Assembly (NCBI GenBank): GCA_050273025.1
Contig: CP158635.1
Location: 7,812,001-7,876,000 of the forward strand
Length of the DNA stretch: 64,000 nt
Origin: Cenococcum geophilum
Taxonomy: Eukaryota
Direction of reading: 5' to 3'
The notes beneath the pieces were generated by a model. That model did not search any database and was not told the origin of the DNA. It worked only from the letters and a program-made list of their open reading frames with translations. Below, piece by piece: positions 1-28,939 of the stretch; the first letter of the stretch is position 1; every line of letters starts with the position of its first letter. The position numbers and the translations under genes are program-made.

Positions 1-64
1 AGTGACTTCTTGAATATGGTAGTAGATTGATTGGTTAGTAGGTAGTGCGATCCGGGCTTATAAC

Positions 65-309
65 TGTAAGCTTTACAGTGCGAAGAATTGAATGAACGAC
101 TTGATTGTGAATGTAGCTCTAAAGCCTCTATATATACACGAAGAAGGTGGAGGTAATAAGACATGATGGGGTAATAGGTAACTGAAATGGAAACAGTGAT
201 CTGCAAGCAATATTGATCTGCAATCAATATATAGGGTGGCGTTGATGCTGTCCTGGAGCCTTCCAAGCGGCGATCTTGTGTCTCGGTACAGTGTCGGTAG
301 TCGGTTACA
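65..309 (-). mobile_element. 5' LTR (245 bp) of a minus-strand Copia element that continues left of the window
   Basis: Reverse complement of LTR 3185-3429 with TG..CA ends. The adjacent 45-64 is the reverse complement of the PBS GTTATAAGCCCGGATCGCAC. Confidence 0.92.
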
Positions 310-785
310 TTTTGTGTTGTAGAAAGTACAGTAGTCTATCTTCAGCTCGAAAAGGCTGAGAATGCGGGTGCGGCTGATGCCTGGCCTGCTTCACCTGCCA
401 AATAAGAGTGGTCTTCCTCTTCGCCGCCCAGGCTGCGGGGTGAACTAGTACAATATGGGTTTAGGTGGGGCATCCCAAGGGATATTTCTTCCTTGGGATG
501 GCCCTAAATCAACTATGGTGAAGACTCTTGCGGAGATCTCTAGTAATTACTATAACTTAGCTAAGAGTTGTATTATAATTAAAGTAAGAACTGGCCACTC
601 TCGGGAAGATCTTCAAGGTCATCAGAGCTGCCGTTACTTTTTAATGGTATAATATTTCGATTATGCTCATCAATCCATCCATGGCGGAGGTTGTCATTCA
701 AAACGACCGTAACGGCCTGTATCCCTTGCACCGATGACAGCCTAGCCTGGAGATGCGTTGACAAAGGTCAAGACGCATTAAGTCA

Positions 786-2276
786 TCAATCACTCGTCAA
801 TGAAACCTTTTCGAGCTGATGTAGCTCTGCCGGCAGATCCTTCAGAACCCCCATCTTTGCAATCCTGAAAGCAAGGCCACAAATCGACCTCTTCTCCTGT
901 TTTCCCGCATCGTTCTCGAACCAGGCCCAGGCACTATCAAGCTGGTCTAGGATGCCGTCCTTTTCAATAATCTCCCGATCGTTGGCATCACCACCCGCCA
1001 GGATCTTCGGCATCAACCATCCTGTCAGCACATATTGGAGCCCTAGTCGCTCTTCGGATGTAATTTCGCATCGATGAAATGCGTCTTCGACTTCCGTGCG
1101 ATCCCGAGAGAACTTCTGTAGCCACATGACGGCGCTGACCATGATCTTGCACCTGTACATGACCTCTGGTTCCTTGGCCAGAGATTTCTTCTCGTGTGCT
1201 TTTCCAGCTGCGATCTCGTCTGCATCGGACTCTGAGAGGATGTGATCAATCAGACATATCATGGTGTCCATGCTGGGGTTCGGTGTGAAGGGCGCATACT
1301 TCTTCATTATCTTCTTCAGCTCTAGATCTTGGTCCTTAGGAAATTTAAGACCCTTGAAAGCATTGCGCACAGCAAGCGGGTAGTCCTTTTTCTGGACTTC
1401 TAGGAACTTTTGAAATATGTCCAAGTCTTCCTTAAATTCTTTCGCCCGATTCGACTCTTTAAGTTCCTGCAATTCGTCAAGGTACGCGCCCAGTCTATGT
1501 TTATTGCCAAATCGGCTACGTGTTCGAGCCATGACGAGATGGTGCAGCTGCTCAAGGAGCAAATCTCCAGACTGGACGAGACCGTTCAAAGCGTCGAGAA
1601 TCCTTTCTTCCTCTACGGACGCCACTCCTTCCATGCTCTTGTACAGGATATCATGGCCTGCTTCTGCCCAGGCGTGTGTCATTGCCGACACGACCTGGAT
1701 CTCGACCATATCGGTCGCTTTCCAGTCGTACTTTTCAGTACCATGATCTGGCTTCATGCGTACTCGGTAATGTTCCGCAGTATAGCCCAAGTTTCGTGGC
1801 CGGTAACCACTCTTTCTCGGTTCTGGAAGTTCCTTCGGATCATGAGGCCTCTCAACGAAGTCAGGCGGTTTGTCTCCGAAGATGGATTTGATAATGGTCT
1901 TGACGGTGTCGCGTTGGATCTGGCTCGGCATATAGAGGATGATACGCACGCCCGCAAGGTCAACGATGTCCTCCATGATTTCCTTTGGATCGGCATAGTG
2001 CACCTTCTCATCTCGTGTTTTCAACTTTTGCAGTAGTCTCTTCCTGTCTTTTGGGCGGAACGAGAAACGTGCCTGCACGCTTTCGCCTTTGAGCTTTTCT
2101 TCACACAACTCTTTCGCTTTTTGGGCACATTTTCTGTAGTGTTCCGGAGAGTATTCGTCCTGGACAAATCTCCAGACAAGGTTAGAGATGGTCGGTTCTT
2201 TGTTAAGAACGGTTTGTGCGCGCGTCAGGGCTCCTCGGTCTGGCGTATCAGTCGATCCCGTAGGGTCTCTAGCCAT
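786..2276 (-). CDS. RelA/SpoT-family (small alarmone synthetase-like) nucleotidyl/pyrophospho-transferase with an uncharacterised C-terminal helical region, about 496 aa
   Basis: Intact intronless ORF. The first ATG is at 2276 (the track starts at a TTG at 2306). Synthetase motifs occur in order: RPKDRKRLLQKL, DIVDLAGVRIILY, GYTAEHYRV, VEIQVVSAMTHAWAEAGHDILYK. No HD hydrolase domain is recognisable. Not RIP-mutated. Confidence 0.9.
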   Translation of the reverse strand: MARDPTGSTDTPDRGALTRAQTVLNKEPTISNLVWRFVQDEYSPEHYRKCAQKAKELCEEKLKGESVQARFSFRPKDRKRLLQKLKTRDEKVHYADPKEIMEDIVDLAGVRIILYMPSQIQRDTVKTIIKSIFGDKPPDFVERPHDPKELPEPRKSGYRPRNLGYTAEHYRVRMKPDHGTEKYDWKATDMVEIQVVSAMTHAWAEAGHDILYKSMEGVASVEEERILDALNGLVQSGDLLLEQLHHLVMARTRSRFGNKHRLGAYLDELQELKESNRAKEFKEDLDIFQKFLEVQKKDYPLAVRNAFKGLKFPKDQDLELKKIMKKYAPFTPNPSMDTMICLIDHILSESDADEIAAGKAHEKKSLAKEPEVMYRCKIMVSAVMWLQKFSRDRTEVEDAFHRCEITSEERLGLQYVLTGWLMPKILAGGDANDREIIEKDGILDQLDSAWAWFENDAGKQEKRSICGLAFRIAKMGVLKDLPAELHQLEKVSLTSD

Positions 2277-4912
2277 TTTGTGCCTCTCGCTGCTACCGGG
2301 TTTCAAGATCTGAGGGAGGTATCAATTCCAAGAGTTGTCGAGTGTGGCCAGAGAAGAGAGTTGATAGAAGGTTGTAGAATCTGGAGGTGTGCCCTCATAG
2401 CCTTGTGAGCCATCGGAATCGTCGCGCGTTTGACGTGGCTTGGCCAACCTAGGCCTTGACAGCAACACACCATCGTTAGAAACTACAGCCACTCTGAATG
2501 CTCATATCTCATATTTCAAAATGTAAAAGCGCGCTCACCTAGCGAGCTGCGATAGAGACAAGAGACCATACCCAGTTATGAAACCCAAGTCATATCGAGC
2601 GCACGTTGAGGCTCTGACCTCACGGACTCCGTGCCTGCTCAACCTTCGCAATGTCTGCTGAGCTGCTTCACTGGATTTCTTCGTGGATTCCAATCATCCA
2701 ATTTCAAGACCAGTGAATCCAGATAGCCTCTGGTCCGAACTTCAGGACACAAGCCTAATCGATGCCCATCGCGAGGACGGCAACGAAGAAGACGAGCCAG
2801 TCAAAGGTCGCTCTCTGCAAGGGCGGATTCTAATTATCGAGGATTTGACTAAGGACCTCGTCGAGCTACTAAGTTCCGCGTTGGACATAGATCCGTTGTT
2901 CTTTGCCTTGCATTTGCATTCACCTCAGAAGAAACGTTCGAACCGCCAAAGTCCGGACCTTGCAACGCTGCCATCAAGGCTACGAAAGCAGGATTATACG
3001 AATTTCCTCCATCACCGGACTATCACGTTCGACTCGGTACCCCCGCCAACTGGGAGGTTATTAGAGGATTCCAACGTTGATCGGAAGTTCATCATACTAC
3101 CTTCGACAAACATTGGATTGGCACAACATTGCACTTTCGTAATCAAAATCCCACGGAAGAATAGCTTTTGGATAGGTAAGCAACTGTAACCGACTACCGA
3201 CACTATGCTGAGACACAAGATCACCGCTTGGAAGGCTCCAAGACAGCGTCAACGCCACCCTATATATTGATTGCAGATCAATATTGCTTGCAGATCACTG
3301 TTCCCATTTCAGTTACCTATTACCCCATTATGTCTTATTACCTCTACCTTCTTCGTGTATATATAGAGACTTTAGAGCTACATTCACAATTAAGCCGTTC
3401 ATTCAATTCTTCGCACTGTAAAGCTTACAGTTATAAGCCCGGATCGCACCACCTGCTGACTAATTAATCTACTACCTTATTTAAGAAGTCACTACTTTTA
3501 CTACCTTTGCAGTGTCTTGAGCTTCTTTACCTATTAAACGAATGGACGATTAACCCCAGTCGACGACCGTACGTACCTGACCAACGAACGAACTGACGAA
3601 TTAAATCAAAAGTTCGAAACGTTAAAATAAGGTTTTCGCCAAGACGCCAATTGGACCCTGCCTGACCTGTTAAAATCCTAAAATGACGATTATAAGCGAA
3701 TTAAAAGTCAACCTTATCCTTAACTAGCTATCTAATTGGATATAGTAGTTCTTTATTATCTAAGACACAGCCAAAACTAACAAGGTACGGTAGTATATTA
3801 ACCCGTCTAAGAAGAAAGATAAGCTTCTAACGCTAGAACTACTGAAACGGCCTATACCAGCGGATGTACGACCTATGGTTACATTAATAACCCAGCTAGA
3901 ATAAGACTAATTCGCTATCTATAACTAGCTCTACGCTAAGTATAAAGACGATCTTTGAATACACTAGAAGTAAGAGCAGGCTATTAATGACATTAGCAAC
4001 TATATTGTGCGAACGACGTTGGTAGCCTACCTTCCCCTTATTAACGGCCTAGACTTGGTCTACGAACGGCTTAAAACACTTAAGAAAGCGCTTGCCCCTA
4101 CTACCTTAGGTTAAAAGTATAACTTCCTAATACAATACACGGCTCTAAAAGCCTATGACAAAAAATAGAGCATTGAGAAATGGTTAAATAACTAGCGGAA
4201 CGTCTATAAGCTTGCTGAGCAATTAGACTTACTAGATATGCAAGGCTTTAGGCCACACTACGACTTCGTTTAAGCAATTCAGCCTATCTCTTCTAGCTTT
4301 ATAGGAGCTCTAGAAGTAGACCTTATTTATAAGGAATGTAAGAATAAAGAAGCCCTATCTATTATTGACCTAATTAAGGAATTTAAGGAGCACTACCGCA
4401 TGTAGTAAGTAGTATCCTTTACTACTACTGCTAATAGCTCTGCCTTTACAACCCTATAAGGCAACTTAAATACTAGTTTAGACGCGAATTCTAACGGTAA
4501 TTTTAATTCCAATTTTAAATGGAATAAGATATGCGTATATAGCCTTAAGTATTAATTCGGCGACTGCTTCTATATTATTAAGCGGAAGCGCCCTTAAGGA
4601 TAGAAGCTAAACCTAGACGTCTAAAAGGAAGTAGAAGAAAAGATCTTATTTATACCTTAGATTAAACGTATCGTTAACCTTATCTTAAAAAGAGAATAGG
4701 AAGTAAAGAAGAGTATAGAATTTATAATTGATTTTAATTATAAAGCCCTACCTTCTAAGACACCTACTAGCTATGCTGCCGCGTTTAGTACTAGTTAATT
4801 TCTATTTAAGCTCCAGAATACCTAAATACTTAACCCTAGTGCAGATACCTACGTCTATAACAACTAAGAAGACTTTACCTTCTCTTACCTAGCTGCAGAA
4901 GACGACTACCTA

Positions 4913-5680
4913 CAGTGGGTCGTCAAAAGTGTCCGTGTTGAGGCCACCCCAAAAATGGCACTCCCTACTAAATTACAATGCGATAACCACGCAATCAATT
5001 CTAAAGCTTTGAAAAATATCTAAAGCTCTTTACAGATATATATTTGAGCAATTGCGACTTTTTTTTAGAGTTTAGCATTTATAATTCTTTGTTAAAAGCC
5101 TTTATGTTATGCCAATGTCTTACCAAAACTCACTATATTTAGTATATATTTTCTATTACCAGATATTAAAAATATTTCTTAAAAATTTAATATCTTGTAT
5201 GGATTTGCTTTTAGTAAAAATCTTTTTATTTAAATTTTTATTTAAAAAATATATAAATTTATTATAAGGTTATAAAGTTAAAAAAGTAGAAAAAAGTACA
5301 ATTTCCCATATAAATTTCAAAATTTAAACTTTATAACCTTATAATAAACTTTCACGCTTTTAAAATTAAAATTAAAATTAAAAGAATTATAATAAATATA
5401 AATCTTTATAAGATATTAATTTTTTTTAAAAATAAATTAATATATAGTAGTGGAAAATATATATTAAGTATTATAGGTTCAGTAAAGAATTAATAGGCTT
5501 TTTAAAAGAATTATAGGTTTTAAATTTTAAAAAAAGTTATAATAGCTAAAGCCTATATATAATATGAATTTTAGATATTTTTTCAAGCTTTAAAATTAAT
5601 TATGTAGTTGTTATATAATAATTTGATAGGGTTGTCATTTTGAAAATGCGCTCGACTCGGACACTTTTGACGACCCACTG
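4913..5680. mobile_element. Tc1/mariner-type MITE (768 bp) inside Copia
   Basis: TIR CAGTGGGTCGTCAAAAGTGTCCG at both ends, TA TSD and an AT-rich interior. The empty site is seen in the second Copia copy at ~36955-36970. Confidence 0.93.
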
Positions 5681-8600
5681 TAATTGCTGGCGGAAATTTT
5701 GAAAAGATTTAAGCCTATAGAATAGTAACTATTATTGTTAATATACCTACTGGGAGCTTAAAAATGAAGCTATCCTATATAGTATTAGTACCTACTATAT
5801 TTACAAATATTGTAGCACTATTAAGGGCTATAGATAATGATATCCATTTTAACTTAGAACGAAACTTGCTATACTGTCTAGCAACTGGCGAAATAGTATG
5901 CTATGCAAAACGACTAGGGGGCTACTGGGCACTAATGTATAGAAAGCCTACCCTAGATTTAATAACTTAATTAACCTTCTTAATAAGAAGATATTAACTA
6001 AGTAGAATGGCCCGTAAACTAGTCGGAGCTATAGCTATAAAATAGTATAAAATACTTGGCTATGTAGGACCTGATGCTATTAAGCAGCTTCCTAAGTACG
6101 TTAATGGCGTAGAGCTTAAAGAGCTAATTAATGAATAAGCACCGCTTAAAATTGAATGTAAAGTCTGCTTATTAGCAAAGCATACGCAGCAGATCTCTTA
6201 AAGACGAGAGTATAAATATCTAGCTACTCGACCATTCGAGCGGCTAGTTTTTGATATTATTACCCTAGGAGAACTAGGGTATAACGGTAATAAATACGTA
6301 ATATACTTCTATTGCATGTATTCTAAATTTAATTTTGTATACACTGCTAAGAATAAAGACAAAGCTACTGTCCTACCTACTATTTATAAGACTTACCAGC
6401 TGATTAAAATACGATTTTACTAAGACGTCATCTTCTTCTGGAGCGATAATAAACGAGCTTTTAGATAGATAGGAGACACCTTATAGATATGGTGCGCAGA
6501 CGAAGGTATTACCTTCAAGTGTCGAGCCCCGTATACTGAAGAATAAAATGGTGGAGTAGAATGATCTAGACGAACCCTTATAGAATGATTAAGGGCTATG
6601 CAGCTAGAAGCTTTATTACCCCCGTCTTTAGGACCAGAAGCTTTTTTTGCTACTAGATATGCACTTAATCGAACCCTAAATAAGCAACTAGGGTGGAGAA
6701 CTCCCTATGAGGTTGCCTACGGTAAGCTGCTATTTCTTACCTATATGCATATATATGGCTGTAAGACCTATATACTGGACAAAAGGGTTAAAAGGGGAGA
6801 TAAACTAGCTCTTTATGCATTAATTAGACACCTAGTCGGCTACAATTTAACTAATATCTATTGAATTTGGATTCCGAGTCTCCGCAAGGTTATTTAAATT
6901 AGAGACGTTATATTTAACGAACCCTCATTTTATAACCCTAAGGGTTAAGATATTAACTACCTGCTAAGGGAAGCATTAGAAGACATCCTTTAGATAATTA
7001 GTCTACCAGAACCTCTCCTTAAGGATAAATTTAAGGATAAATCTATCTTATATAGACCTACCTCAAATGTAGATTAAATAACTACACCTAAATTAAATGA
7101 TGTAGTAGAGCCTTATATAAAGGATACTAAGCAGTTACTAACTCCTAGTAGAACGGTATCTTTAAATCTATTAGAAACAAACACCTTACTAGGAGGACTT
7201 TAAGACGATATCTTAGAGGTAATTAAAATAGGTCCTACCTAATTAAACAGTTTATTAGAACCGTTAAATATAGCTCTATAAGCTAACGAAGTCTTAGCTA
7301 AACCTTCTGCCGACCTTATCTTACTAAAAGGATTAAAACGAATTCAACGTTAAGCGTATATAGCAGTACTAGCCAATCTATCTACCCTATTTAATTACTA
7401 TGCTGGATTTGCTATAGGACTAGTAAAGGATATTGACTAAACTAGATCCTTATCTCTATATCGGGACAACCTTCCTCCTAAACTAAAGAATCTTAAAGAT
7501 CTAAGAAAGCACCCTTTAACTACTAGCTTTTAAAAGGCTATGGAAAAAGAATACAATGACCTAAAACGCTAAGGGATATTCAAGACTATACTAAAAGTAG
7601 AAGCAGGTAACGAGCAGATCTTTTTATTAAAATGGGTCTTTAAATATAAGCTTAATAGCGACGGTTACCTTTAAAAGCTTAAAGCTAGACTATACGTCTG
7701 CGGAGACCTATAGATTATAAAGGAAGAGACCTATGCAGCAACCCTAGCTACTTAAATATTCCGTGCTCTTATGGCTATAGCAGCCGCATTTAACCTGGAA
7801 ATTTAATAGTATAACGCGGTAAACGCATTTATAAACGCTAAGCTTAGTAAACTAATCTACTGCTATTACCTAGAAGGATTTAATTAAAACGGACATGTCC
7901 TAAAGCTACTTATAGCGCTATATGGATTAAAAATCTTACCACTACTTTGGTATAAAGAGCTTACTAATATACTAGCTAAATTCGGATTAGAACTAGTATT
8001 AGGCATTAACTACCTATTTACTAATAGACGACTTATTGTCTTTTTCTATATAGATGATATTGCCGTCCTATTTGCCAAGAAGGACCTTTTAAGACTTGAA
8101 GAATTTGAAGCAAAATTGCTGCACTGATACAAGATCTATGTATTAGGAGACCTATAGTGGTTTCTAGAAATTTAAATTAAACGAGATCGACTAAGTCGAA
8201 AGCTCTGGCTCTGCTAAGATTCCTACATTAAAAGGATAGCTAATCGATTTAATATTTAACTAGGAAGATTTCCTAAATCTTTACTACCTACTGAACTGAT
8301 TCCGTCTAACCAGTAGACGAACCCTTAAAGAATACTAGCCTATTAGTAACGGGTTGGTTCTCTTATATACCTAGCCGTATTTAGAAGACCTGATATTACT
8401 AAGACGCATTCTAAGCTAGCCGAATTCCTTACTAATCTAAATTAAGAACACCTTAATATAGCAAACTAATTACCTCAGAAGCTTAGACCAAGAAATCGAT
8501 TGCGGATATAGGAATATCCGCACCGTCCGCTAAGCTAATTTAGGACGGTAATCGTTTTCTTGGTCTAAGAGACTTTGGCGAGATTTATAGGAAAACCTAA

Positions 8601-8929
8601 ATACCGTTTATATAAGAAGACCTTATAAACTTTAACGAAATTAATCTACCCTCCCATAATACCTGTCGACATAAAAATTATACCAAATTATAGAGAAAAG
8701 CCTCCTCTATAAGTTATGAGATCTTCAGCTTCTTATACACGCGCGATGTTAAGAGGAATTCGTTGCCGTAGAGGCCCCAATTCTACCTCCGCATCGCCGA
8801 GCCGCTTAGTAAACACCAACGCTGAACGCTTACGCCCACGCCCACGCCCACGCCCACACCGCCAGCCCTCTGCGTAGAGCTGTGGAGCTTTGCGAGAGCT
8901 CTGTGAAACAAAGCTCAGGGGGAAACCTG

Positions 8930-9575
8930 CACGGAGCTCTGCACGGAGCTCTACCAAAGCTCTGCAAAAGCTCTGCACGAAGCTCCGCACGAAGCTCCGC
9001 TCGAAGCTCTGCTCGAAGTTCCGCTCGAAGCTCTGCTCGAAGCTCTGCTCGAAACTTTGCTCGAAGCTCTACTCGAGGCTCTACTCGAAACTCTGCTCGA
9101 AACTCTGCTCGAAGCTCTGCTCGAAGCTCTACTCGAAGCCCTGTCGATTCCCATTACCAAATACTGACTGAGTGGCGTTGTCGAAAGTGGCAATTACAAA
9201 TCGTAGTCGTCAGCTCTACCGTCAGCATCGTCATTGGCGTTTCGCCACCTACCTCATGTATATATATTATCTTTTCTTCGCCTATATAGAGCTCTAAAGC
9301 TCTAACACGCAGCACTAATATACTAGCAAGGTTCTACAATCGCCCGTACAAACGCCCATACAATCAATCGATCAATTGCCCATACAATCGTCTCTACAAA
9401 CATCTCTGCAATTGATCGCCCTTACGAACGTCTGCACGTCTGCACAGCTACACGTCTGCACGCCTGCACGTGGCTCTGCACGAAGCTCTGCACGAAGCTC
9501 TGCACGAAGCTTTGCACGAAGCTCTACTAAGGCTCTGCACGAAGCTCTACTAAGGCTCTGCACAAGGCTCTGCCC
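8930..9575 (+). repeat. Two 12-bp tandem arrays (GAAGCTCTGCTC / GAAGCTCTGCAC) at ~8930-9140 and ~9470-9575
   Basis: Direct inspection. They explain the SSAR/KLCS low-complexity ORFs. Confidence 0.9.
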
Positions 9576-10004
9576 AAAACTTACCCTTAAGTAGTAGCAG
9601 AGGCCTCCGGGCCACGGGAGGATATTTTTAAGGAAGGACCCAACTATAGCACCTTCTAGGTGTTGCAATGGCTTTAAGTAGTAGATATCTACACATCTGT
9701 ATAATTTTAGCTATATTAGTAGGCTATTTAATAAGATATAATATATGCTTACGCTTTTAACAACGCGTTTTTTAACTTTAATAAAATTAATATTAGGACT
9801 AAGCAATAGCCGTATTATAAAATTTATACTATTTAGAAGCCCTAAGTCTTAAAAATAATATATAAATATTTGGTAATAATAACGCGTTATGTGAATAAAT
9901 GAATTAGATATCTGTAATATCCGTTTAGCGGATTTTTGCTTACGCTTTTAACAAAACTTGCTAAAGCCTCTCAGACGTGATTTTGCAATTCGGAAGACGG
10001 CATA

Positions 10005-11204
10005 GAAGGCCCCACCACCTCGTGCACGGTACCACCTCGTGCACGGTTTTCCCCCACCAAAATACACCAAAATACACCTTGTTTAAAATTTTATAACTTA
10101 ATAATTATAAAATTTATTACTATGAAATTTGAAATATGGTTTATTAAATAGTAAATTTATCATTTTATAAAATAAAAACTATGAAATTATAATATATATA
10201 TTTTATAAATTAAGTTTAAAAAAGATCATTTTAATATTATATATAACTTTTAATAATAATTATATGCTATCTATTATTAAGTTAAATTATTTTATTTTAT
10301 ATATACGTTATATAAATAAAGGGTTTTATAATACTTTAGGCTTTATAATTATATAATTATATTATTTAAATTTACATTTAATAAAATATATATTTGTTTA
10401 CATTTAAATTATAAATAATACATTTATATTATAAATTATATTTTTAATATAATATAATATAATATAATGTAATAATAAAGTATAATTTAATTTACTTTTA
10501 TGTTATGTATAACTCTTTTTATATTTCTTTATATTTTTGTATAAAATTATATAAAATTATATAATTTTATTAGCAGCAGGTGCCCCCTAGTAACTCTACA
10601 GTAGTAGAGTAATAGTTTGTGATACTAGCGCGTCCGTAGGCTTGTTACGGCAGCAGTGGTTCCTAAGGAGGTCAAACAGCAAGGTAGTAGAGCACTATAG
10701 GCGACTTATAGGCGCTAAGCAGGCGAGTCCCAAAAGGCGGGGAGATGGATCACGGGGTTTTCTCATTTTTCTTAAATAGAGTTTTCTCCCCACATGTAAA
10801 TAAGGAGTAGTCCGCGTGGGCCCAATAGGGATCCGAATCGGACGTTAAGCAATGAATTATTATTATTATTATTATTATATAATTTTATTATAAATAATAT
10901 AGATAATAATAATATTTTTTCAAAAATTAACTTAACATAATTTAGTATAATCATTTAAAATTATAAATTAGTCAAAAATTATTCTATTTATTAACTTATC
11001 GACTTATTAATATAAAGTTAAATATTTTAATATTTTAATAAATATTGAGTATTTTTGTAAAATAAAAATTTATAATAAAAATTTACATATTTGGATATGC
11101 TATATTTAAATTTCAAGTTATTTTATTAAAAGGGTGATTTTTAAATATAAAAAGACTGGAAAACGTGCATGAGGTGGTACCGTGCACGAGGTGGTGGGGC
11201 CTTC
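10005..11204. mobile_element. TA-TSD MITE nested in the 9-bp-TSD element
   Basis: ~41-bp TIR GAAGGCCCCACCACCTCGTGCACGGTACCACCTCGTGCACG with an internal direct repeat. TA on both sides and a very AT-rich interior. Confidence 0.9.
10572..10876 (+). mobile_element. Severely 5'-truncated LINE copy (3' UTR plus (ATT)n tail)
   Basis: Near-identical to 32191-32483, the 3' end of the LINE at 28940-32483. Flanked by a ~13-16 bp TSD ending ATATAATTTTATT. Confidence 0.88.
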
Positions 11205-13148
11205 TAGGTTATTCCGACGCTAGCTAAAAATCGCGTCTAAGCTCGCTGAGGTAAGCAAACTAAGCTATTTCCTACTGCCTTAGAACAAAATTAACAGCTA
11301 TTAAATACTCTGGCGAAGCCTTTAAAGCATACGTCTATTATAGAAACCTAGAAGGAGAAGATGTTACCTTTTACAGAGTATCTAATATAGCATTTGCGGA
11401 CGATAAGGAGACTAGACGGAGCTCTTAGGGGTACCTATTTATACTATTTGGAGGACTAATTAATTGGAAAGCTACCTTATAACAATCGGTTACTCGTTTA
11501 ACTACTAAAGTGGAGCTTCTCTCCCTATCTACTGCTGCCGTTAAAATTATCTGGTGGTAATGATTCTTTAAGGCAATAGGCTTTAACTTAGAACGCGATT
11601 TTACCGTGCTCTACAACAATATGCAGACTGTACAACTCCTAAGACAGGATATACCAAAGCTTGACACTAAGCTTCGACATATCAACGTTTACTAGTACTG
11701 GCTGAGGCAGGAAGTCTAAGACAAAAAGATTGACGTCTAATGGGTCCTTATAGATAAGATGCCTGCTAACGGCCTTACCAAGATCCTACCTCGTCAAAAG
11801 CACGAAGCTTGGATAAAGTAATTGAATTTGGTGGATATTTGACATTAGATTAATTGATTCCATTCGTAATGTCCGCGATATCCGCAATATCCGCGATATT
11901 CGCAATAATGCCATTTTAATTACCCTACCCTTTGCTACTCTTAAATTGTATCTAAATTTCCTATTTTGGTATAGCTTCTGACCTTATTTTATGTTCTATA
12001 GCTTTAACTACATCGTTAAATCTGGGGGGGTGTGTAACCGACTACCGACACTGTGCTGAGACACAAGATCACCGCTTGGAAGGCTCCAAGACAGCGTCAA
12101 CGCCACCCTATATATTGATTGCAGATCAATATTGCTTGCAGATCACTGTTCCCATTTCAGTTACCTATTACCCCGTCATGTCTTATTACCTCCACCTTCT
12201 TCGTGTATATATAGAGACTTTAGAGCTACATTCACAATCAAGTCGTTCATTCAATTCTTCGCACTGCAAAGCTTACAGCAACGATTCTTGTCTTTCGATT
12301 TGGTCCACTGAGACTTATGTCTGGATAGCCTTGATACTTGTCGACCCACCCATCAGGGACGAATACCTCCCCAATGGAGACCAAGACACCAGCACCAACT
12401 ACGTCGAATTCTATCCAAACCATTTCTGGGAGGCTATGAGGATTTTCTCGACCCGCCGTCCATCTTCTCTGACACGGATTCTTCATCCAGTCCCAAGCGT
12501 CAGGGCCTCCTTCAAGATCTCCTATATTACTTGGCCCAAGACGCGTCACCATGCCTGAATCCCCAAAATCCCACGCCCACATCCCTCTCTTACTACCCCC
12601 TCAAAATAGTCGCCGCAGAATGGGTCAAATATTGCAGAAAATCCGCGCTATCGTTCGCCTACTACGATCACGGATGATGGCGGAGTCTACACAGGACTGT
12701 ATTATCGCGCTCATTGAGGATTTCGAGCACATCGCTGTGAATATGGAAGACGCCGGTTGCCGACTTGAGAGCATGTTACCAATCGTCACATCTCTAGTTC
12801 AGATCGTCGATACCAGACGGTCATTCGCAGAGACGGCCAATATCAGCCGCTTAACGATTTTGGCCCCGATTTTTGTCCCCTTGAGTTTCGTAGGATAATG
12901 CGCCGGGACATAAGTACTTTTGGGTGTATTTCGTTATTGCTGTGTCGGTTACTGCGGTTGTTTATCTTATTGCTCGTCCGCCGAGCAAGGAGCTTAAGAT
13001 TTTGTTTGAGAAGTTCAAACTGGGGAGGAAACGGCTGGATACTGTTGAGTAAGTGCGATCTGGGACTTTGTTGTACAAGGAATCGCAGGTCTGATGGGGC
13101 TTCAGCGAATGGTGAAGGGGCTATAGTACCTGTTGGTAGGGGGGGGTA

Positions 13149-16100
13149 ATAATGATGTTTATTCCGCCCGGAGGCACTAAGCCTAAAGGGCACTAGTACT
13201 ATATTACATATTTTCGCTCCTTTTAGTCTCGCCATATTCTCATACAAGCCCGTATATATACCTTACTTAGTACTCCCTAGTGTTACTAATACCTTATTCT
13301 GCGAGATCTCGTGGGTGGTTAGTAGTAGGTAGTCTTGGGGGGCTGTTCCTCTAAGTGTTTATTGTCCTATCTTCGGCGATTAAAGCGAGATCTGCTGGTG
13401 GTATGAGGGTGCGTGGTATGGGTTGGTCGAAGTGTGAGGGGGGGGGGGGGGGGTTTAACTGTGGTGGGCGGGTTATTAATCTGGTTCTACCTTAAGTCGT
13501 CTGGTGGCTATTGCATATTTTACTATTATTTGGACCACGTTTACGTTTAGTGTCTACTATCTAGGGTCAAATGGCGCCTTGCCCCTAAGGTAGAAGGATA
13601 AGCTGCCTTGTCTTATATCTGTTTGCTATAGTATTTATTCTTAATACGCTGTCCATTTTATATACCTAAAGAGGAAATATTTTACTGTTTCTCTTACTTA
13701 TCCGCAGTTATATTAATCTAATTCTGCCGCTCTAATCCGGTGTAGATATCTATTAAGTTATATTATTCCCGTCCGTAGTTAGGCTAACACGTTTACCTCT
13801 TTTTACTTAAGGGAGTTATATAGCCTACGGGTATATTTACCTAGTAGCGCTATATTTATTTTTCTTAAGTACCTTCCTACTCCTTCTGGTAGTATTTTCC
13901 TACCCCACTATCTTGCTCTTGCTATATTAATTATTATAGCCTTAGCCTGGTGTTGTTGTCCTTGTAATAGGCGTCCTTATATAGTAGCCCGCCGTACTGC
14001 TTTTTTTGCCTTCTTGCCTAGTGCGAACTCTTTTTATATTAGGACCTATGCTATAAGGACGCGGTTGCTTCTTTGCTTTAGCGTACGGGTTATATTATAA
14101 ATTTATATAATACTTATTTGGCTGGACTAGTGCTTAGGTTAGCTAAGCGCTAGTAGTGCCGCCTAATTACTAGTAAATATAGTAATCTGTCTCCCCTATA
14201 GATCCGGTAGTAAGCGTCTTATCACCAATAATATTACTATTAGTTTAGCCGTATATAGGTTCTGTTCTGCTCTTAGTCCTAGTGTGGTTAAGTATATAAC
14301 CGCTTCCCTGTTTGGTGTATTGCTAAGGGTATTATAGATAATACCTCCTATTCCTACTATGCCTCTCCTCCCGGACGAGCTTGTTGCGATCTATATACCT
14401 TAAACGGAGTTAGCGGCTTTAGTTGCCCTATCTTTATCTGGGTTAATGCTTATAGGTAGTCGGTCCTCCTATAGTGGTACTATATAGGGTTAAATAACCT
14501 CCATCTTATCTGTTAGTGTATGTCAGTGTATGTAGGCTATCTTCTATAGTAGGGACGTAAACCTTTAGAGCACCTTCGTGCGGAGCCTTAAGAGTGGGTT
14601 CGTTTTATATAGCGTGTAGAGGTTAACCTATAGCTTAGTGGCCCTCTCTAAATGCCGCTCGCGTACTAACTATATGCTTGCTTCGGCTTCCCTAATAACT
14701 GTAGCTACTATACAGAAAGTTCCTATAATTACCTGCGCTCTAATTCTTTATACCCTATTTATTACGGCTATAGCGGAACCCCTATAGACGTGCATCTAGA
14801 TGTTTAAGGCGTAGTCTACTACTAGCGCTACCGTTGCCCCGAATAGCTGTCTTATGGTTAAGGGGGATACCATCTAGAGTCTCTTTAGTGCTATAGCTGC
14901 GATAAGGCCCTTAGTGGCTGCTTTTACGATATATTACTTATACCAAAGCTCCGCATCTATAACTACCCCTAAAATCTTAGCTATATGCCTTAGTATAACT
15001 GTTTTTCCCTTAATTATAAACGGGGTAGTATTAGTCCGCTCCGCGTTTCTTATAAAGTGCACTAATATAGTCTTTTCTCCTTTAAACGTTGCGCCGCTTT
15101 GTTTCTCCCAGTCTATTACTCTATTAATAATAGCCTAAATACCTTTACAGTTTGCTGCTACTAATAGTCCTATAACCTATATATTATAGTCGTCTACAAA
15201 CGCCATTAAGCCTCTATTTGCATTAAGCCGGTACTAGACTAGGTTAGCGTTAAAAAAGAGGAATAGTATTAGTGAAAGCGGCGATCCTTATGGTAGTCCT
15301 ACTTATAGTAACTATTGCTGGTTAGAGGTATGGCCGTTAACTAAGATAGTCGCCGTATAATTAGAGCAGAATATATTAATCCACCGCACTAGCACCAGCG
15401 GTATACCTCTTGCTATAAGCCTCTATAATAGCCTCTCTTTATATACTCCGTTATATGCCCCTTTTATGTTAAAGCTAATAAGGCTAAGCACCTTCCTAAA
15501 CCTCTATACGTTGTATATATGTTCTTATAGTAGCAGCAGCGCCTATTTAGTAGAGCGCTTTTTCCTCGCCCTAAAGTAATTTATAGGTAGTAGTCTAAAG
15601 GTTTCCACTGCGTGTAATATTCTCTCGGCAACCATAGACTCTAGCACCTTGCCTAACGTAGAAAGCAAAGAGATAGGCCTCTATGCCCTTGCCTTTGTAT
15701 AGTCTCCTTTATTTGGCTTCTTAAGCAGTATAATCTTAGCATTTCTCCATTGGCTGGGAAGGTTACCCTTATTTAGTGAGGTCTAAAAGAGGAGCAGGAC
15801 CCTATCTTTTATTACTAGCCATATCTGCCTCCACACTATCGCTAGTAGGCCGTCGTCCCCTGGCGCTTTTTATGGCTTTACTGTAAATATCTTCCGTTCT
15901 ACCTCTTCCATTATAAAACGCGGCATTGGTATTAGCGTTTATTAGGGCCGTGGGCCCTCGTCCTCTATTCCTGCTAGCAGCGGGGGAAAGAACGTGGTTA
16001 ATAGCTCCGCTGCTTACTTATCTTTTCCTTCTGTAGTAGATCTATTTGTCCTTATTAGTGGTGGTATCTTATTAAACGCTAAGTTACTGCTTGGGTTAAG

Positions 16101-23070: not shown

Positions 23071-26000
23071 TCCCCCCTGCTGCAAAGCAAATCTATACCT
23101 ACTAGTATAGGTATAGTATAATTAGGTGAGCTGTTTGTAATAGAGTATAAGAGGCACCTCCGTGAATTTGGAAGGAAATGGAGTGGTGGTGGTGGAGTAC
23201 GACTGCTGTTTCGATGTAGCTGGCGGAAAGGGACCAGTTTCAAAAATGCGTCTTCGAACTTTAAGGCTGTATCTCGCCCCCTAATACAGTAGTTAGCTAA
23301 TTGTAATTATTATAATTATATAAAAGAAGAGATTACAATTCAAATGCATCGCGCACTAAGACCATAGCTGGTATATTCACGCTGCCAGAGTTGTTTAAAA
23401 TTAACGCACGTTGGAAAAAGGACCCAGTTTACACCAAACGCACGCCCATAATAGGGGGGTTTCGATGGAACGATATATTCGTTCGATATTTAGTGTAAGC
23501 AAGTCGAAACGAGCGATCGACACGTACTAGCAGTATTTAGTTAGTCATTCAAAATATCGAACTTGGTTCTTGGCAAATATTATACGAAACGATGTTATAT
23601 AACATTAAAATCTTTAACTATTTACACGTTTTAATCGAGCGCTCTAAATAGCCTTATATTTTCCACACTTTGCCTTTACCACTATGCCTTTTAATCTTAT
23701 ACGTGATGTCGAATCTACCGTTGATATAGTAGAGCAGCTGTACCGCGCGTACGTCGCTGTCTCGGTCGCGTCAAGCTAGCCTTTATAACCACCTAATTTT
23801 ATCTACTAAACTATTAATAAAGCTATTCAGAGCGAAGCTTGTGTAGAGGACAGGCTAAGACATTGCGATAAGTTACTAAATTCAAGCGGAAGTAAGGAAG
23901 GCGGCTAAAAGAAGAGGTTATATATAGGGAAGGCGGAAAAGAAGGCTCTAGCTCTACTAGCCGCGAATATCTATTAAGCTAAGCTTCGCCCTTAAGGAAA
24001 GGATAAATTCTAGAGAATCCTTATAAGGAAACGCGTTAAAGAAGGAGGCCTAAAGCATAACTTCTATTTACTTAAGGCCCTATTTAACGCGCTTATAAGT
24101 AAAAGAAAGAAGGAAGTTAAGGAGGACAATACTTCCGGTAGAGAGATTTGCTATAGTAAGTTCTTTACCCACCTTAATCTCCTTATTAAATAAATTAATA
24201 TTATTTTATAACCTTTTAAGAAGACTTAATAGGCCTAACAACGGGCGGCTTAAAGAGAGATAATTTGGACGAATTTTATACGGAATCTAGGCGATAAATG
24301 GCGTATAGATAAGGCTCTATTTAACTATAAGGACAAAAATACCAAATCTACTTATAGAGTTAGTAAAAGAGGCGAAATGTTTAGCCGTAGTAGAGCCTCT
24401 AGTTCGTCTACTTATAGCAGTTAGAAGGGACACCGGAACGCTATAATAACGTCCTATACAGTAGATAATCTAGCTGCAGCTGTTACGGACGCCTTAAGTA
24501 CGATGTTACGACTACTTGGGGAAGAGTCGGAAGAAGCTAGTTGGTTAATATAAGCACGGTCCAGGATGGAGCCGATAGAGCTATATGACGAGGAATGGTA
24601 ACTAAGGTCACATAATATAATCTATATAATCTATATAATCTACATAATCCGCAATAGAGCAGATAGAGTATACGTTTATTACATATAAGAAGGATTTTAT
24701 AGGAGTACGGTTGTGTATTTAAGGACCCTTAGTCCCTACCTAGATAGTTCCTTCCTTATAGTGATTCTTAGAATATAATTGGAGTTAATCTATTAGGCAA
24801 CCACTCCACCAGTTGTTATTACGTTGTTAACTATTATCTTTGTATTTCCTATACACCTAGCCTATTAACGAGCCTATCGTAGTTCCTGCTATAAGGTTCC
24901 GTTATATAATTACTACTACGGTTATAGTATTAAACACAGTAAGTTAAATAATATGCCACCAAAAGCAGCTACTATAACGCTATTAACGGCGGCAACTACT
25001 TTGAGGTTAGGTAACGATACTAGTATAGCAGACACTAACTTATAGTAACCTATAACGGTCGGACAACTATAAGAAATAGTTGACTAGTTAATAGAAAATA
25101 ATGTAACGTTGGAAAATAGGATTAACGGGATAGGCGCAGTAAAGGTTAAGTTACCATTAATTAAAAAATTCTTAGGAGAGAAGTTAAAGCTTAAAGGATT
25201 CCTTACGCAAATGCACTTTAAAGTTACATAAGAAGGAGTAAAGCTGGTAATACCTATGGATTAAATAGCGTATGTGGGATTGTTCTTAATAGGAAGAGCA
25301 CTTAAATGGTTTAAGCCTTACCTTACGGAAATCTAGGTAAATGGAATAACGACTATAAACTAAGAGGTACGGTTTATGTTCTTAGGCTAGAATGGATTTA
25401 TAGAGCGACTTATATAAATATTTAGAGACTTAGAGGCGGTGACTATAGCGGAAAGAAAACTTTAAGATATTATATAATAAACCTTAGTAATTAAATATAT
25501 AATGCAGTTCCAGACGTTAGCGACGTAAGTAGAGTGAAATAATAGGGCGCTTATAGCACAGTATAAATAGGGACTTAAGGCTAAAGTCTAGGACGCGATT
25601 ATCCTAATAGAAGATGCGAATACCCTAAGGGAACTAATAGATTAAGCGATTAAGATTAATAATTAGATCTACTAAAGGGAATAGGCTAAGAGAGGTTAGG
25701 ATAGAGTTTTATAGTTATATAAGGCGCAGAGTATGTAATAACTAAAGCTAAGTTAAAAACTATAGTATGGCGCAGAGCTAATGGACCTAAGTAGTACTAA
25801 AAAAGCCTATAAGAGATGGAGTAAATAACTATAGAAACCTAGAGGATAAGGATTAAGTAATTAGAGGTCTAGGGAGCAGAGGCTAAACTAGGGATCTTAA
25901 TAGCAGAAGACGTTTAGGCGGACTCTATAGCAAGAAAAATGGTTTAAAGAAGGAGCTTATATAAATTATGGAAAATAGGGTTATTATATTAGAGACTATA

Positions 26001-28939
26001 GAGGTAGGTAGAGTTACCACGTAGTAAAAGGGATAAGACTAGTAGACGACATATACGTATAGAGGGACGATAATGTGCTATAAGGAATAAAAGAATGTTT
26101 AATTAAAAGTTTTGCGTTTTATTATAATAATATATACCGAATTTATAAGAACGCTAAGTATAGCGTAAGCTATTAGCTATAGGAGCTATATTTAGCAGAA
26201 TACAAAGGAACTAATAAACTAGCTCGCAGATCGGACATTAAGGACGATGAATTCAACAAAGGTAAAGCATTTTATAACGATAAGGCAATAGAAGCGGTTT
26301 ATTGGGAACGCGTAGCTATTGGAGATGTTACACTAGAGGTAGAGGATAATTCCACTATAGAATAGGGAACATTAGTAGGGATTAAGACCCTACTAGACAC
26401 GATATCTATCGCTTTATAAGACATAAGAGAAGTAGAATAGCGAGCCACTTCGGCACTTAATAAAGGCAAAAGGCTAAAAACTTAAGACTCTTAAGACGAG
26501 ATGCGAGACGACTAAGATTCTCAAGACAAGATAAGGTAAGCTTAAGGACCTATAATAGACAATAACTGATAGAGCAGAGTAACGGCTTAGTTTAGTAATA
26601 TACGAATAAGCTTAGGATAAAGTTTCCTAAAGGTATAAGACTCTTAAGATAAGATAAGTAAGATTTAAGACTCTTAAGATAAGATAAGAACACTAAGTAA
26701 GCCTAGTTGGACTAAGGCTGGAGCTAAGCTTAAGTTAAAAGTAAGCTTAGGATTAAAGAATCTAAGGGACTAAAGATTTAGAGTATAAATAAGGGAACCT
26801 ATAAATAAGAGGTAAGAGGCTTCTTTATAGATTAGAGAATCTATAGCGTAAATAGTGATTAGACTAGGAGATAGATATATAAACCTAGAAGACTTACTAG
26901 GAGAACATAGTGTTCGGCCTAAAGATCGAAAAGTCAATACCAGGATTAAGAAGTAAGACAACTTTAAGGATTAATCTGTAAGACGTAAACCAAAAGAAAC
27001 TATAGAAGAGTTTAGGCAAAGAATTATCGTATAGTAAGAATAGAAACTAGATAAGAGATCTAGTATATTAGGACGTATAAGGAATAGAGCGCCAGTACGA
27101 AGAATTACTAATTAGCTAAGAACAGGCATACTAAGAGCTAAGTAGCTTACTAAACTAGAAAACGAAGAGGATTTAGGAATTCCTACTAGGTTTAAAGAAC
27201 GACATATAAAGGGCTGTTACGACGTAGTAATAAGAAGATACTTCCTTACGGACAAGCCGTATACACTCTAGTAGCTATACTAAAGGTAGTATAGGCAGCG
27301 ATATAACGATAAGTAGGAAGATTTTTATATATAGTTAGATAAAAAAGTTATCTAGGACTACCCAATTATAGAAAAGGCCATAAGTTATATTAAAGGAGTC
27401 TTAATTATAATGTTAAAGGATTTAGAGAAACGATCAGAGAACTAGAGAAGTAAGAGGCGCATTTTAGTACCTATAAATAAAGTTATAACGTTTAGATTAG
27501 TATAATAAAGGTTTAAACTTAAGGATAAAGATAAGTTAAGAGTTAACCTAAAGCACCCGGCATACTATATGCTATTATGGATTGTATATATAGATAACAT
27601 ATATAATATGCATAAGAATCCAAAGGAAAAGAATTGGAAATACCCTATAAGGATATACTAGATAATAGATAAGCGATAGTATAGGAATGCTAAATATATA
27701 TACGGATGGCATCTAGCAGAGGTCTAAGAGGAAGGAAATTTAATACTTTAACCAGGAAGATTCCTTATAGAAGAATGCTTAAATAGACAATAGTAGTGGA
27801 AATGCCTAGAGAATACGTGTCTATAGTATATAGAAGATAAAAAGTAAACTAGGTATTAGCTAAAGAGTAAGCTAAGTGTAATAGGATTAAGCAGCTAATA
27901 GTTAGGAAAAGTAGAGGCCTACGGGACTAGAGGGAGCTAGTGGTAGAGCCTTAGACCCTTAAAGGAATTTAAGGACAACACCTAAATTTATAAATTAAAT
28001 AGTAAGATTAGTAGTTCGAAGCGCTAATAGATAGTAAAGCAACGCGAAACCATATCTTACTAGTAGTAGTTAAGAGAATAGGTTTACCTTATAGACAGAA
28101 GAAGTAATCTTACCTATTAGTTATAATTTTAGGAGATCTAATAGCCTATAGAGGAGGGATCATTAACCTTAAAATAGGACCTATTTAGATAACTATTAAA
28201 GGGAAACAAATTAAGATATCTTTTAATATCCTACTATTAGGACGGGATAAGGCAGTATTAGGGATGCCTTAGTTATAAGAATACAATCTAAGGATTAATT
28301 GGATTATAGGTTAGGTCGATATTAGAGATACTTAACGCCGTAAGATATAATAATAGGCTAAGTTAGTATGGTACTAAGTTGGAGCAATATATAAAGAGAC
28401 TAAGTGAGGCTTAAGTTACGTACTAAAGAGATACTACAAATATGGCAAGAAGCTATAGTTACTAGAAAGTAAAAAGCTAGTAGAGTATGCAGTATAGAAC
28501 TATAAGATAGAATTAGAACTAGGAATAAGTTTAAGGTTCTTTCTAATCTATAAGCTTACTAAAGAAGAAGGTAGAGCACTAAAAGAGTTTATCTAGAAGA
28601 ACTTATAAAAAGGATATATTAGACTATTATAGTCATTAGCGGGATATCTAGTACTGTTTATACTAAAGAAGAATGGTAAACTAAGGCTATGTATTAACTA
28701 TAGATAGTTAAACAGCATTACTAGGAAGGATAGGTATCTTTTACCCTTAATTAGCGAAATCTAAGATAGGATAGGCAACGCGCAAATCTTTACAAAGATA
28801 GATCTGAGATAGGCGTACTATTAGATTAGGATTAAGGAAGGCGACAAATAAAAGGCAGCCTTTAGGTTAAAGGAAGGACTGTATAAACCATTAGTTATAT
28901 AATTCGGGCTTATAAACGCACTAGTAATATTCTAGAAGC

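Follow-up and report, generated by a model that had tools for sequence, protein, structure and literature searches.

A RelA/SpoT-type synthetase gene paired head-to-head with a CorA-like gene suggests an undescribed synthetase-plus-channel signalling module in Dothideomycete fungi

The analyzed window comprises 64,000 nucleotides of the Cenococcum geophilum genome (GenBank assembly GCA_050273025.1, contig CP158635.1, positions 7,812,001 to 7,876,000 of the forward strand). Close to its left end lie a RelA_SpoT-domain synthetase gene (786..2276, minus strand) and, on the plus strand, the remains of a gene for a CorA-like membrane protein. The only plus-strand ATG in the CorA-like frame is located at 2578, and the divergent intergenic region between the two start codons, the putative shared promoter, covers positions 2277..2577. 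A preliminary description of the stretch had placed the start codons (2276 minus, 2578 plus) about 300 bp apart in divergent orientation, and the measured distance is 301 nt. Also its recognition of a RelA/SpoT synthetase beside a CorA-like gene agrees with the coordinates and with the Pfam and homologue matches. In many related fungi these two genes likewise lie side by side and have evolved together, a pattern suggesting that the pair represents an undescribed signalling module consisting of a synthetase and a channel.

The synthetase gene is an intact, uninterrupted open reading frame (ORF) of 496 amino acids. Pfam RelA_SpoT (PF04607) matched its residues 74-214 with 38.3 bits against a cut-off of 27 (E 1.8e-9); Pfam gave nothing else above the cut-off, and a NACHT or NB-ARC domain and repeats were absent. 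The predicted structure model (pLDDT, predicted local distance difference test, 83) divides the protein into an N-terminal domain with a small-alarmone-synthetase (SAS) fold (residues ~28-250) and an all-helical, family-specific C-terminal domain (residues ~255-490). The best structural match of the model was RelQ (5dec_A; VIA-align Z 15.1, root-mean-square deviation 3.1, 183 residues aligned), and RelP (6ewz_A) reached Z 14.5, the aligned residues numbering 183-193 for RelQ/RelP. The folds of the toxic SAS (toxSAS) type, Tas1 (Z 9.7), CapRel (Z 9.6) and FaRel (Z 6.4), all remained behind these two. Foldseek likewise recovered the SAS nucleotidyltransferase fold (E 4.4e-5). When the whole 496-residue model was used in the structure search, the matches were confined to residues 28-240 and none was obtained for the C-terminal domain, which was not searched alone. 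For the C-terminal domain (252-496) ESM Atlas gave no usable feature match, all structural rows having template modelling scores below 0.4.

The residues R74, K76, K84, D106, G109, R111, Y165, H169, E192, Q194, H208, Y212 and K213, which are invariant within the family in an alignment of 30 sequences, are all kept in the window synthetase. In a profile search, the basic R/K loop and the motifs D-x-x-G-x-R, E-x-Q and H-x-x-x-Y-K, which we take to be catalytic, aligned with the motifs of RelP. The window synthetase deviates at five of the 72 columns conserved to at least 90%, the range within the family being 0-17 and the closest relative deviating at nine. The predicted product is a purine nucleotide with an added pyrophosphate, of the (p)ppGpp/(p)ppApp type. 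Bacterial RelQ/RelP (SAS1/SAS2) are the best structural matches of the enzyme and share its motifs, but the identity is only 14-19%, and the fungal protein differs by an extra domain of ~250 amino acids, a eukaryotic origin and a conserved membrane-protein partner. As in toxSAS and CapRel, the part behind the SAS catalytic domain is a C-terminal domain with a possible role in auto-inhibition and sensing. The structural similarity to CapRel and FaRel is nevertheless weaker, the fungal C-terminal domain was unrelated to theirs in the searches run, and the fungal partner is a membrane protein and not an antitoxin.

Of the 24 public sequencing runs listed, 20 contained half or more of the words sampled from positions 500-3185, and 12 of these 20 are recorded as RNA. 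Three metatranscriptome runs from different studies (X13, X7 and X5) were aligned on 311-3185. Each gave a contig covering the synthetase with no differences: 659-2370 in X13 (depth 11.3), 554-2359 in X7 (22.1) and 395-2733 in X5 (13.4). The apparent transcript derived from these RNA-library contigs (554..2370, minus strand) would include the coding sequence with a 5' untranslated region of ~85-95 nt and a 3' untranslated region of ~130-230 nt. CorA-like exon 1 was represented only in contigs of its own, at lower depths (2-6), and the contigs of the two sides end and begin at ~2360-2370 and ~2474-2605. A contig of X5 extends 50 nt beyond position 3185. The three gene-sized contigs from different studies make expression of the window synthetase likely; RNA-library contigs as such show neither strand nor proof of transcription, and DNA carry-over is possible.

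The CorA-like gene consists of two exon remnants separated by a conserved intron. The exon 1 remnant (2578..3175, plus strand), corresponding to the N-terminal cytosolic domain, matched residues 9-221 of the homologue P0123 with 47% identity in tblastn, and positions 58-223 of the family profile A2, built from 19 intact CorA-like homologues, with E 1.8e-60. The intron starts with a GTAAGC donor at 3176 and is present as a 5' part (3176..3184) and a 3' part (12278..12328, with AG at 12327-12328), both on the plus strand; without the retrotransposon between them it is 55 nt long. Its position is conserved, the ORF or high-scoring segment pair (HSP) of loci L005, L009, L011-L013 and L015 of the metagenome scan described below breaking at profile position 222/223, and some CorA-like gene models have inserts at the intron column. 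The exon 2 remnant (12329..13052, plus strand) is readable only across three frames. Its pieces, also found as tblastn pieces, cover profile positions 208-264, 248-326, 356-453 and 462-508. The motif YYPLKIVAAEW is located at 12591-12623, and the second transmembrane (TM) helix and the stop at 12918-13052; the reading can be traced, with interruptions, to the TAA at 13050-13052.

Four lesions break the reading frame of the CorA-like gene. An in-frame TGA at 2659-2661 in exon 1 aligns with R, H or Q in the homologues, and a frameshift is located near 12412. Near 12630, a deletion of ~30 profile positions (327-355) combined with a frameshift has removed the family-invariant W-x-R-R, and near 12893, a deletion of ~9 positions (454-461), again with a frameshift, has removed the S-S-L-F-S-M-N pore loop between the TM helices. 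The nonsense codon, the three frameshifts and the two deletions mark the window copy as a pseudogene which would be dead even without the retrotransposon insertion. According to the preliminary description, a 9-kb Copia nest splits the CorA gene. A Copia element of 9,093 bp does lie within the gene, but its description as a nest found no support, a single LTR (long terminal repeat) pair being found in positions 2500-13500, and the split is not the only damage, the gene being multiply broken. An otherwise intact CorA-like gene merely interrupted by Copia was rejected on the basis of the mapped nonsense codon, frameshifts and deletions. Pfam CorA (PF01544) reached only 14.8 bits (E 0.019) on the remnant, below the cut-off of 27, and the other four of the five pieces had no match; the pieces were identified through the homologues and the family profile instead. 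The synthetase gene appears to have remained under constraint beside this decay: four ORF-breaking lesions were found in ~1.55 kb of CorA-like coding sequence and none in 1.49 kb of the synthetase, a rough comparison in which the Poisson P of ~0.02 is indicative only.

The nature of the CorA-like family is seen from its intact members. The relative at L003:8168-9001 matched Pfam CorA with 48 bits, and PF01544 is present in the precomputed annotation of CorA-like homologues. A structure model of the Melanomma homologue P0122 (pLDDT 74.5), a relative and not the window copy, matched full-length T. maritima CorA (4i0u_E) in Foldseek with E 3.7e-9 over 454 columns, and includes the features of the CorA fold, i.e. 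an alpha/beta N-domain, a long stalk helix and two C-terminal TM helices. The G-M-N signature is replaced in the family, F-S-M-N being invariant in 19 sequences (F463, S464 and M465 of P0122). The model and the alignment identify the family of the second gene as a CorA-fold membrane protein with two TM helices and an S-M-N pore signature. The family resembles the canonical CorA/Mrs2/Alr1 Mg2+ channels in its whole-chain fold and in the Pfam annotation of the homologues, and differs from them in having F-S-M-N and not Y-G-M-N, in the conserved YYPLxIVAAEW motif and in being lineage-restricted and multi-copy. The complex prediction of the Melanomma pair (P0006 residues 26-505 with P0122 residues 1-511), run without controls, gave a score of 0.00 and is uninformative either way.

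The search for relatives of the synthetase yielded 277 matches at E ≤1e-3, of which 120 were compared, mostly proteins of ~500 amino acids from Pleosporales and other Dothideomycetes. CorA-like relatives (~530 amino acids) numbered 26 when the exon 1 piece was used and 238 with the family profile; 120 were compared. Among the matches listed, at least 35 contigs, matched by size, were common to both families, and 21 of these are no longer than 135 kb. Four genomes have adjacent locus tags for the two genes: Coleophoma (BP6252_03445/6), Paraconiothyrium (SLS60_009977/8), Kalmusia (N0V90_001619/20) and Alternaria (AA0117_g2403/4). A metagenome scan produced 49 loci, of which 14 included a full-length member of the synthetase family and represented 10 distinct loci. 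The CorA-like gene is situated directly upstream and head-to-head in seven of these 10, with 592-1121 bp between the HSP ends. In an eighth, L003, it lies 5.4 kb downstream of the synthetase, and the contig has only 1 kb of upstream DNA. Except in near-identical species, the flanks beyond the pair were not common between the loci (11 regions compared). The pairing, for which the preliminary description had proposed a test of adjacency between synthetase homologues and CorA-like genes of the YYPLxIVAAEW type, is far above chance, and the pair is a conserved two-gene module of Dothideomycete fungi, found also in one Leotiomycete.

In one further locus both genes look decayed (L019:1757-4421): the synthetase match extends over three frames, and a CorA-like N-domain fragment of ~47-110 amino acids lies upstream, head-to-head. 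The ~28 distant, mostly bacterial-looking RelA_SpoT loci (L022-L049) contained no matches to the CorA-like family apart from L032; ordinary bacterial CorA was not sought in them. L024:2-2597 (G+C content 0.32, probably bacterial) has, all on the same strand, ORFs for a TerB/Tic110-like protein, an Ion_trans channel (E 1.1e-22) and then a RelA_SpoT domain (E 2e-21), and thus shows another arrangement of a synthetase beside a channel. In ORFs of ~1,000 amino acids on the GC-rich, bacterial-looking contigs L025 (9731-12868) and L034 (9854-12898), RelA_SpoT occupies the N-terminus and the long remainder is blank in Pfam.

Two gene trees were built from the same 35 protein pairs, a comparison that the preliminary description had proposed, and they proved congruent. 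The patristic distances of the two trees correlated with a Mantel r of 0.84, and none of the 5000 label permutations gave a value as high. Altogether 20 of 32 splits were common to both trees, the permutations having a mean of 0.21 and a maximum of 3. The two pairs of Phaeosphaeriaceae sp. PMI808 were placed in different clades which matched between the trees, and the pair has therefore been duplicated or retained as a unit.

The distant locus L032 (2,489 nt) connects the pair with fungal NOD-like receptors (NLRs). Its RelA_SpoT domain (Pfam E 2.7e-8) is followed by a GTAAGT-type break and then by a NACHT-type P-loop (NPHP3_N, E 1.1e-10); the identity of this synthetase domain to the family does not exceed ~25% (25-27%). 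The CorA-like N-domain is matched (A2 profile E 1.2e-26) by an ORF placed upstream in head-to-head orientation. As far as this one contig indicates, a RelA_SpoT-NACHT NLR has the same CorA-like partner, which would tie the pair to a fungal immune-receptor context. A second contig with RelA_SpoT and NACHT (E 1e-14), L023:1-2598, begins inside the gene and has no upstream DNA. RelA_SpoT has been a listed effector domain of fungal NLRs since Dyrka et al. 2014 (PMC4986451; also PMC12258605). The window protein shares with these NLRs the catalytic domain family and the occurrence in filamentous ascomycetes, but it and its relatives of ~500 amino acids lack NACHT, NB-ARC and repeats and have a helical C-terminal domain of their own. 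No mention of a CorA partner was found in the passages of these papers on RelA_SpoT NLRs; the supplementary tables could list neighbours.

The retrotransposon in the CorA-like gene is of the Ty1/Copia type (3185..12277, plus strand), internally degenerate and AT-rich. It was inserted 9 nt into the conserved intron and not into an exon, and is flanked by a 5-bp target-site duplication, GCAAC, at 3180-3184 and 12278-12282. Between its two LTRs (3185-3429 and 12033-12277) the identity is 97%. The integrase-side match SH3_retrovirus (6589-6861) lies before the RVT_2 match (7888-8124, E 3.3e-8), giving the order integrase to reverse transcriptase. The G+C content falls to 0.16-0.17 inside the element, and its dinucleotide indices resemble those produced by repeat-induced point mutation (RIP). 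In a GC-richer stretch of the element, a 12-nt tandem repeat (AAGCTCTGCTCG-like) forms arrays of 14 and 3 registers at 8932-9171 and 9435-9542.

At 1..312 (minus strand) the 5' LTR of the same Copia element, together with the first bases of its interior, occurs a second time in inverted orientation, 94% complementary to 3182-3493 and running off the window. Two copies therefore bracket the 2.9-kb island formed by the synthetase, the promoter and CorA exon 1, a layout that could favour its inversion or loss. The remainder of the window has few genes, with seven ORFs of at least 130 amino acids in 51 kb, and RIP-like dinucleotide indices, whereas positions 1-4000 lack such indices. It includes a further degenerate retroelement with RVT_2 at 34357-34797 (minus strand, E 1.5e-20). 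Positions 25057-26038 show 53-70% protein-level identity to L004:6288-7269, upstream of the synthetase homologue of L004, and related elements therefore surround the synthetase gene in two organisms.

A close parallel to the fungal pair is found in type III CRISPR systems, in which Cas10 makes SAM-AMP and a divergent CorA binds it (Bacteroides fragilis Cmr; PMC10600005). The likeness lies in a gene for a nucleotide-making enzyme beside one for a divergent CorA, whose N-domain is large and cytosolic and whose C-terminus has two TM helices. The fungal synthetase is, however, a RelA/SpoT SAS and not Cas10, and the host is a eukaryote. The side-by-side and co-inherited synthetase and membrane effector are a likeness shared also with the cyclic-oligonucleotide-based anti-phage signalling system (CBASS).

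Functional coupling of the two fungal genes is well supported. That the coupling would take place by a nucleotide is possible and not far from probable. In such a mechanism, the SAS-type RelA/SpoT pyrophosphokinase would make its (p)ppGpp/(p)ppApp-type nucleotide when synthesis is released by the C-terminal domain or, in the NLR version, by the NACHT sensor. Binding of this nucleotide to the cytosolic funnel of a pentamer of the cognate CorA-like protein would open the pore, and the ion flux would lead to growth arrest or death, by the same logic as in Cas10/SAM-AMP/CorA and CBASS. In the window, the channel gene would have been destroyed by the entry of Copia into the intron and by subsequent mutations while the synthetase stayed, and the latter may work together with a channel paralogue encoded elsewhere, or act on a different target. 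A module of a synthetase and a nucleotide-gated CorA-like channel, with one decayed copy here, is the best overall explanation, and a tentative one. The wider claim, that fungi run an alarmone-type second-messenger pathway of immunity or cell fate in which the nucleotide opens a co-evolving S-M-N CorA-fold channel encoded next door, is somewhat unlikely.

Several observations weigh against gating by a nucleotide. The gating of the CorA-like channel by the synthetase product is itself something that we only infer. Congruence of the trees is expected also from plain co-inheritance of neighbours. Two of the 10 distinct loci, L001 and L004, have no CorA-like gene within at least 8.6 kb on either side, and the coupling is therefore not obligate. 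In the window, an intact and apparently transcribed synthetase stands beside a dead CorA-like gene, and it is therefore not dependent on this neighbour. The NLR pairing comes from a single contig of 2.5 kb. In the CRISPR CorA the N-domain is described as a unique fold (PMC10600005), while the fungal one superposes on ordinary CorA. The same source describes CRISPR CorA effectors as obligately associated with signal-degrading enzymes, whereas no signal-degrading gene (NrN, DEDD or lyase type) recurs near the fungal pair: among the 11 regions compared, the only recurrent flanking gene codes for a C2H2 zinc-finger protein. Nine of the 10 distinct loci have this gene, of one family (Pfam zf-C2H2), no more than 5.3 kb downstream of the synthetase, and the block could thus be a co-regulated cluster of another kind.

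According to this alternative, which is unlikely, though less so than the two considered after it, the genes would be co-regulated neighbours without molecular cross-talk, kept together in a small stress or metabolic cluster by a bidirectional promoter and the C2H2 factor, splitting of the promoter being costly. The C2H2 gene is convergent at a distance of 0.3-1.3 kb in five loci (L001:11452-13035, L003:3149-4171, L007:4513-5613, L008:4875-5951 and L013:7361-7648, all on the minus strand), and on the same strand 3.7-5.2 kb off in four (L006, L009/L010, L012 and L015). The window stops 785 bp past the synthetase, inside the Copia copy, so it cannot show such a neighbour. Also the promoter itself speaks for common regulation. 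The 8-mer CAAGGCTG, often as TTCAGCCTTG, was found in seven of nine divergent intergenic regions (L005, L007, L008, L010, L012, L013 and L015), often in at least two copies per region, compared with a maximum of four in 30 mononucleotide shuffles, and the window has one copy with one mismatch at ~2398-2405. It is a candidate for a shared cis-element, and the C2H2 factor and the TCAGCCTTG element are candidate controllers of the divergent promoter. Survival of the synthetase alone in the window, L001 and L004 likewise fits neighbours without cross-talk. On the other hand, promoter inertia hardly explains why the pairing recurs at 25-27% identity with the NLR architecture of L032. Despite the changed gene order of L003, its CorA-like gene has stayed within 6.5 kb, and pairs have been duplicated as units.

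A reversed order of control, in which the CorA-like protein is a channel or sensor of Mg2+ or another metal that supplies or reports the divalent cation required by the pyrophosphokinase, and the ion status controls alarmone-like synthesis, is distinctly improbable. The match to the CorA fold does include the N-terminal domain, the part which senses Mg2+ in T. maritima CorA, and RelA/SpoT homologue (RSH) synthetases require Mg2+. Against this, the G-M-N needed for Mg2+ transport in CorA is replaced by an invariant S-M-N, and the loss of the channel in the window left a synthetase that appears constrained and transcribed. A toxin-antidote pair, in which a toxic SAS would act through ATP depletion via (p)ppApp or through tRNA pyrophosphorylation as in toxSAS and the CorA-like protein would protect by export or sequestration, is very improbable: the fold resemblance to Tas1, CapRel and FaRel, the two-gene layout and the absence of RSH hydrolases reported for fungi (PMC3153485) agree with it, but the fold is nearer to the housekeeping SAS RelQ/RelP, L001 and L004 carry the synthetase alone, and the dead supposed antidote beside an intact supposed toxin found in RNA libraries of several studies disfavours it, although an intact antidote paralogue might act in trans.

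In the same survey (PMC3153485), of 2011, the SAS genes of fungi appear without placement under the label 'divRel'. In the literature searched on CorA, RelA/SpoT, fungal NLRs, cell death and second messengers, no description of the synthetase/CorA-like pair was found. The RelA_SpoT domain of NLRs has been without a known target or product in fungi since 2014, as presented in PMC4986451, and the conserved, co-evolving membrane partner offers a concrete and testable downstream component. Read conservatively, the finding is a lineage-restricted neighbourhood of three genes, the CorA-like gene, the SAS and the C2H2 factor, annotated so far only as hypothetical proteins. If coupling of the synthetase and the channel by a nucleotide is true, immunity based on a synthetase and a gated pore would extend from bacteria to fungi, the CorA fold would have a new ligand-gated use in eukaryotes, and the long unexplained RelA_SpoT domain of fungal NLRs would gain a receptor.

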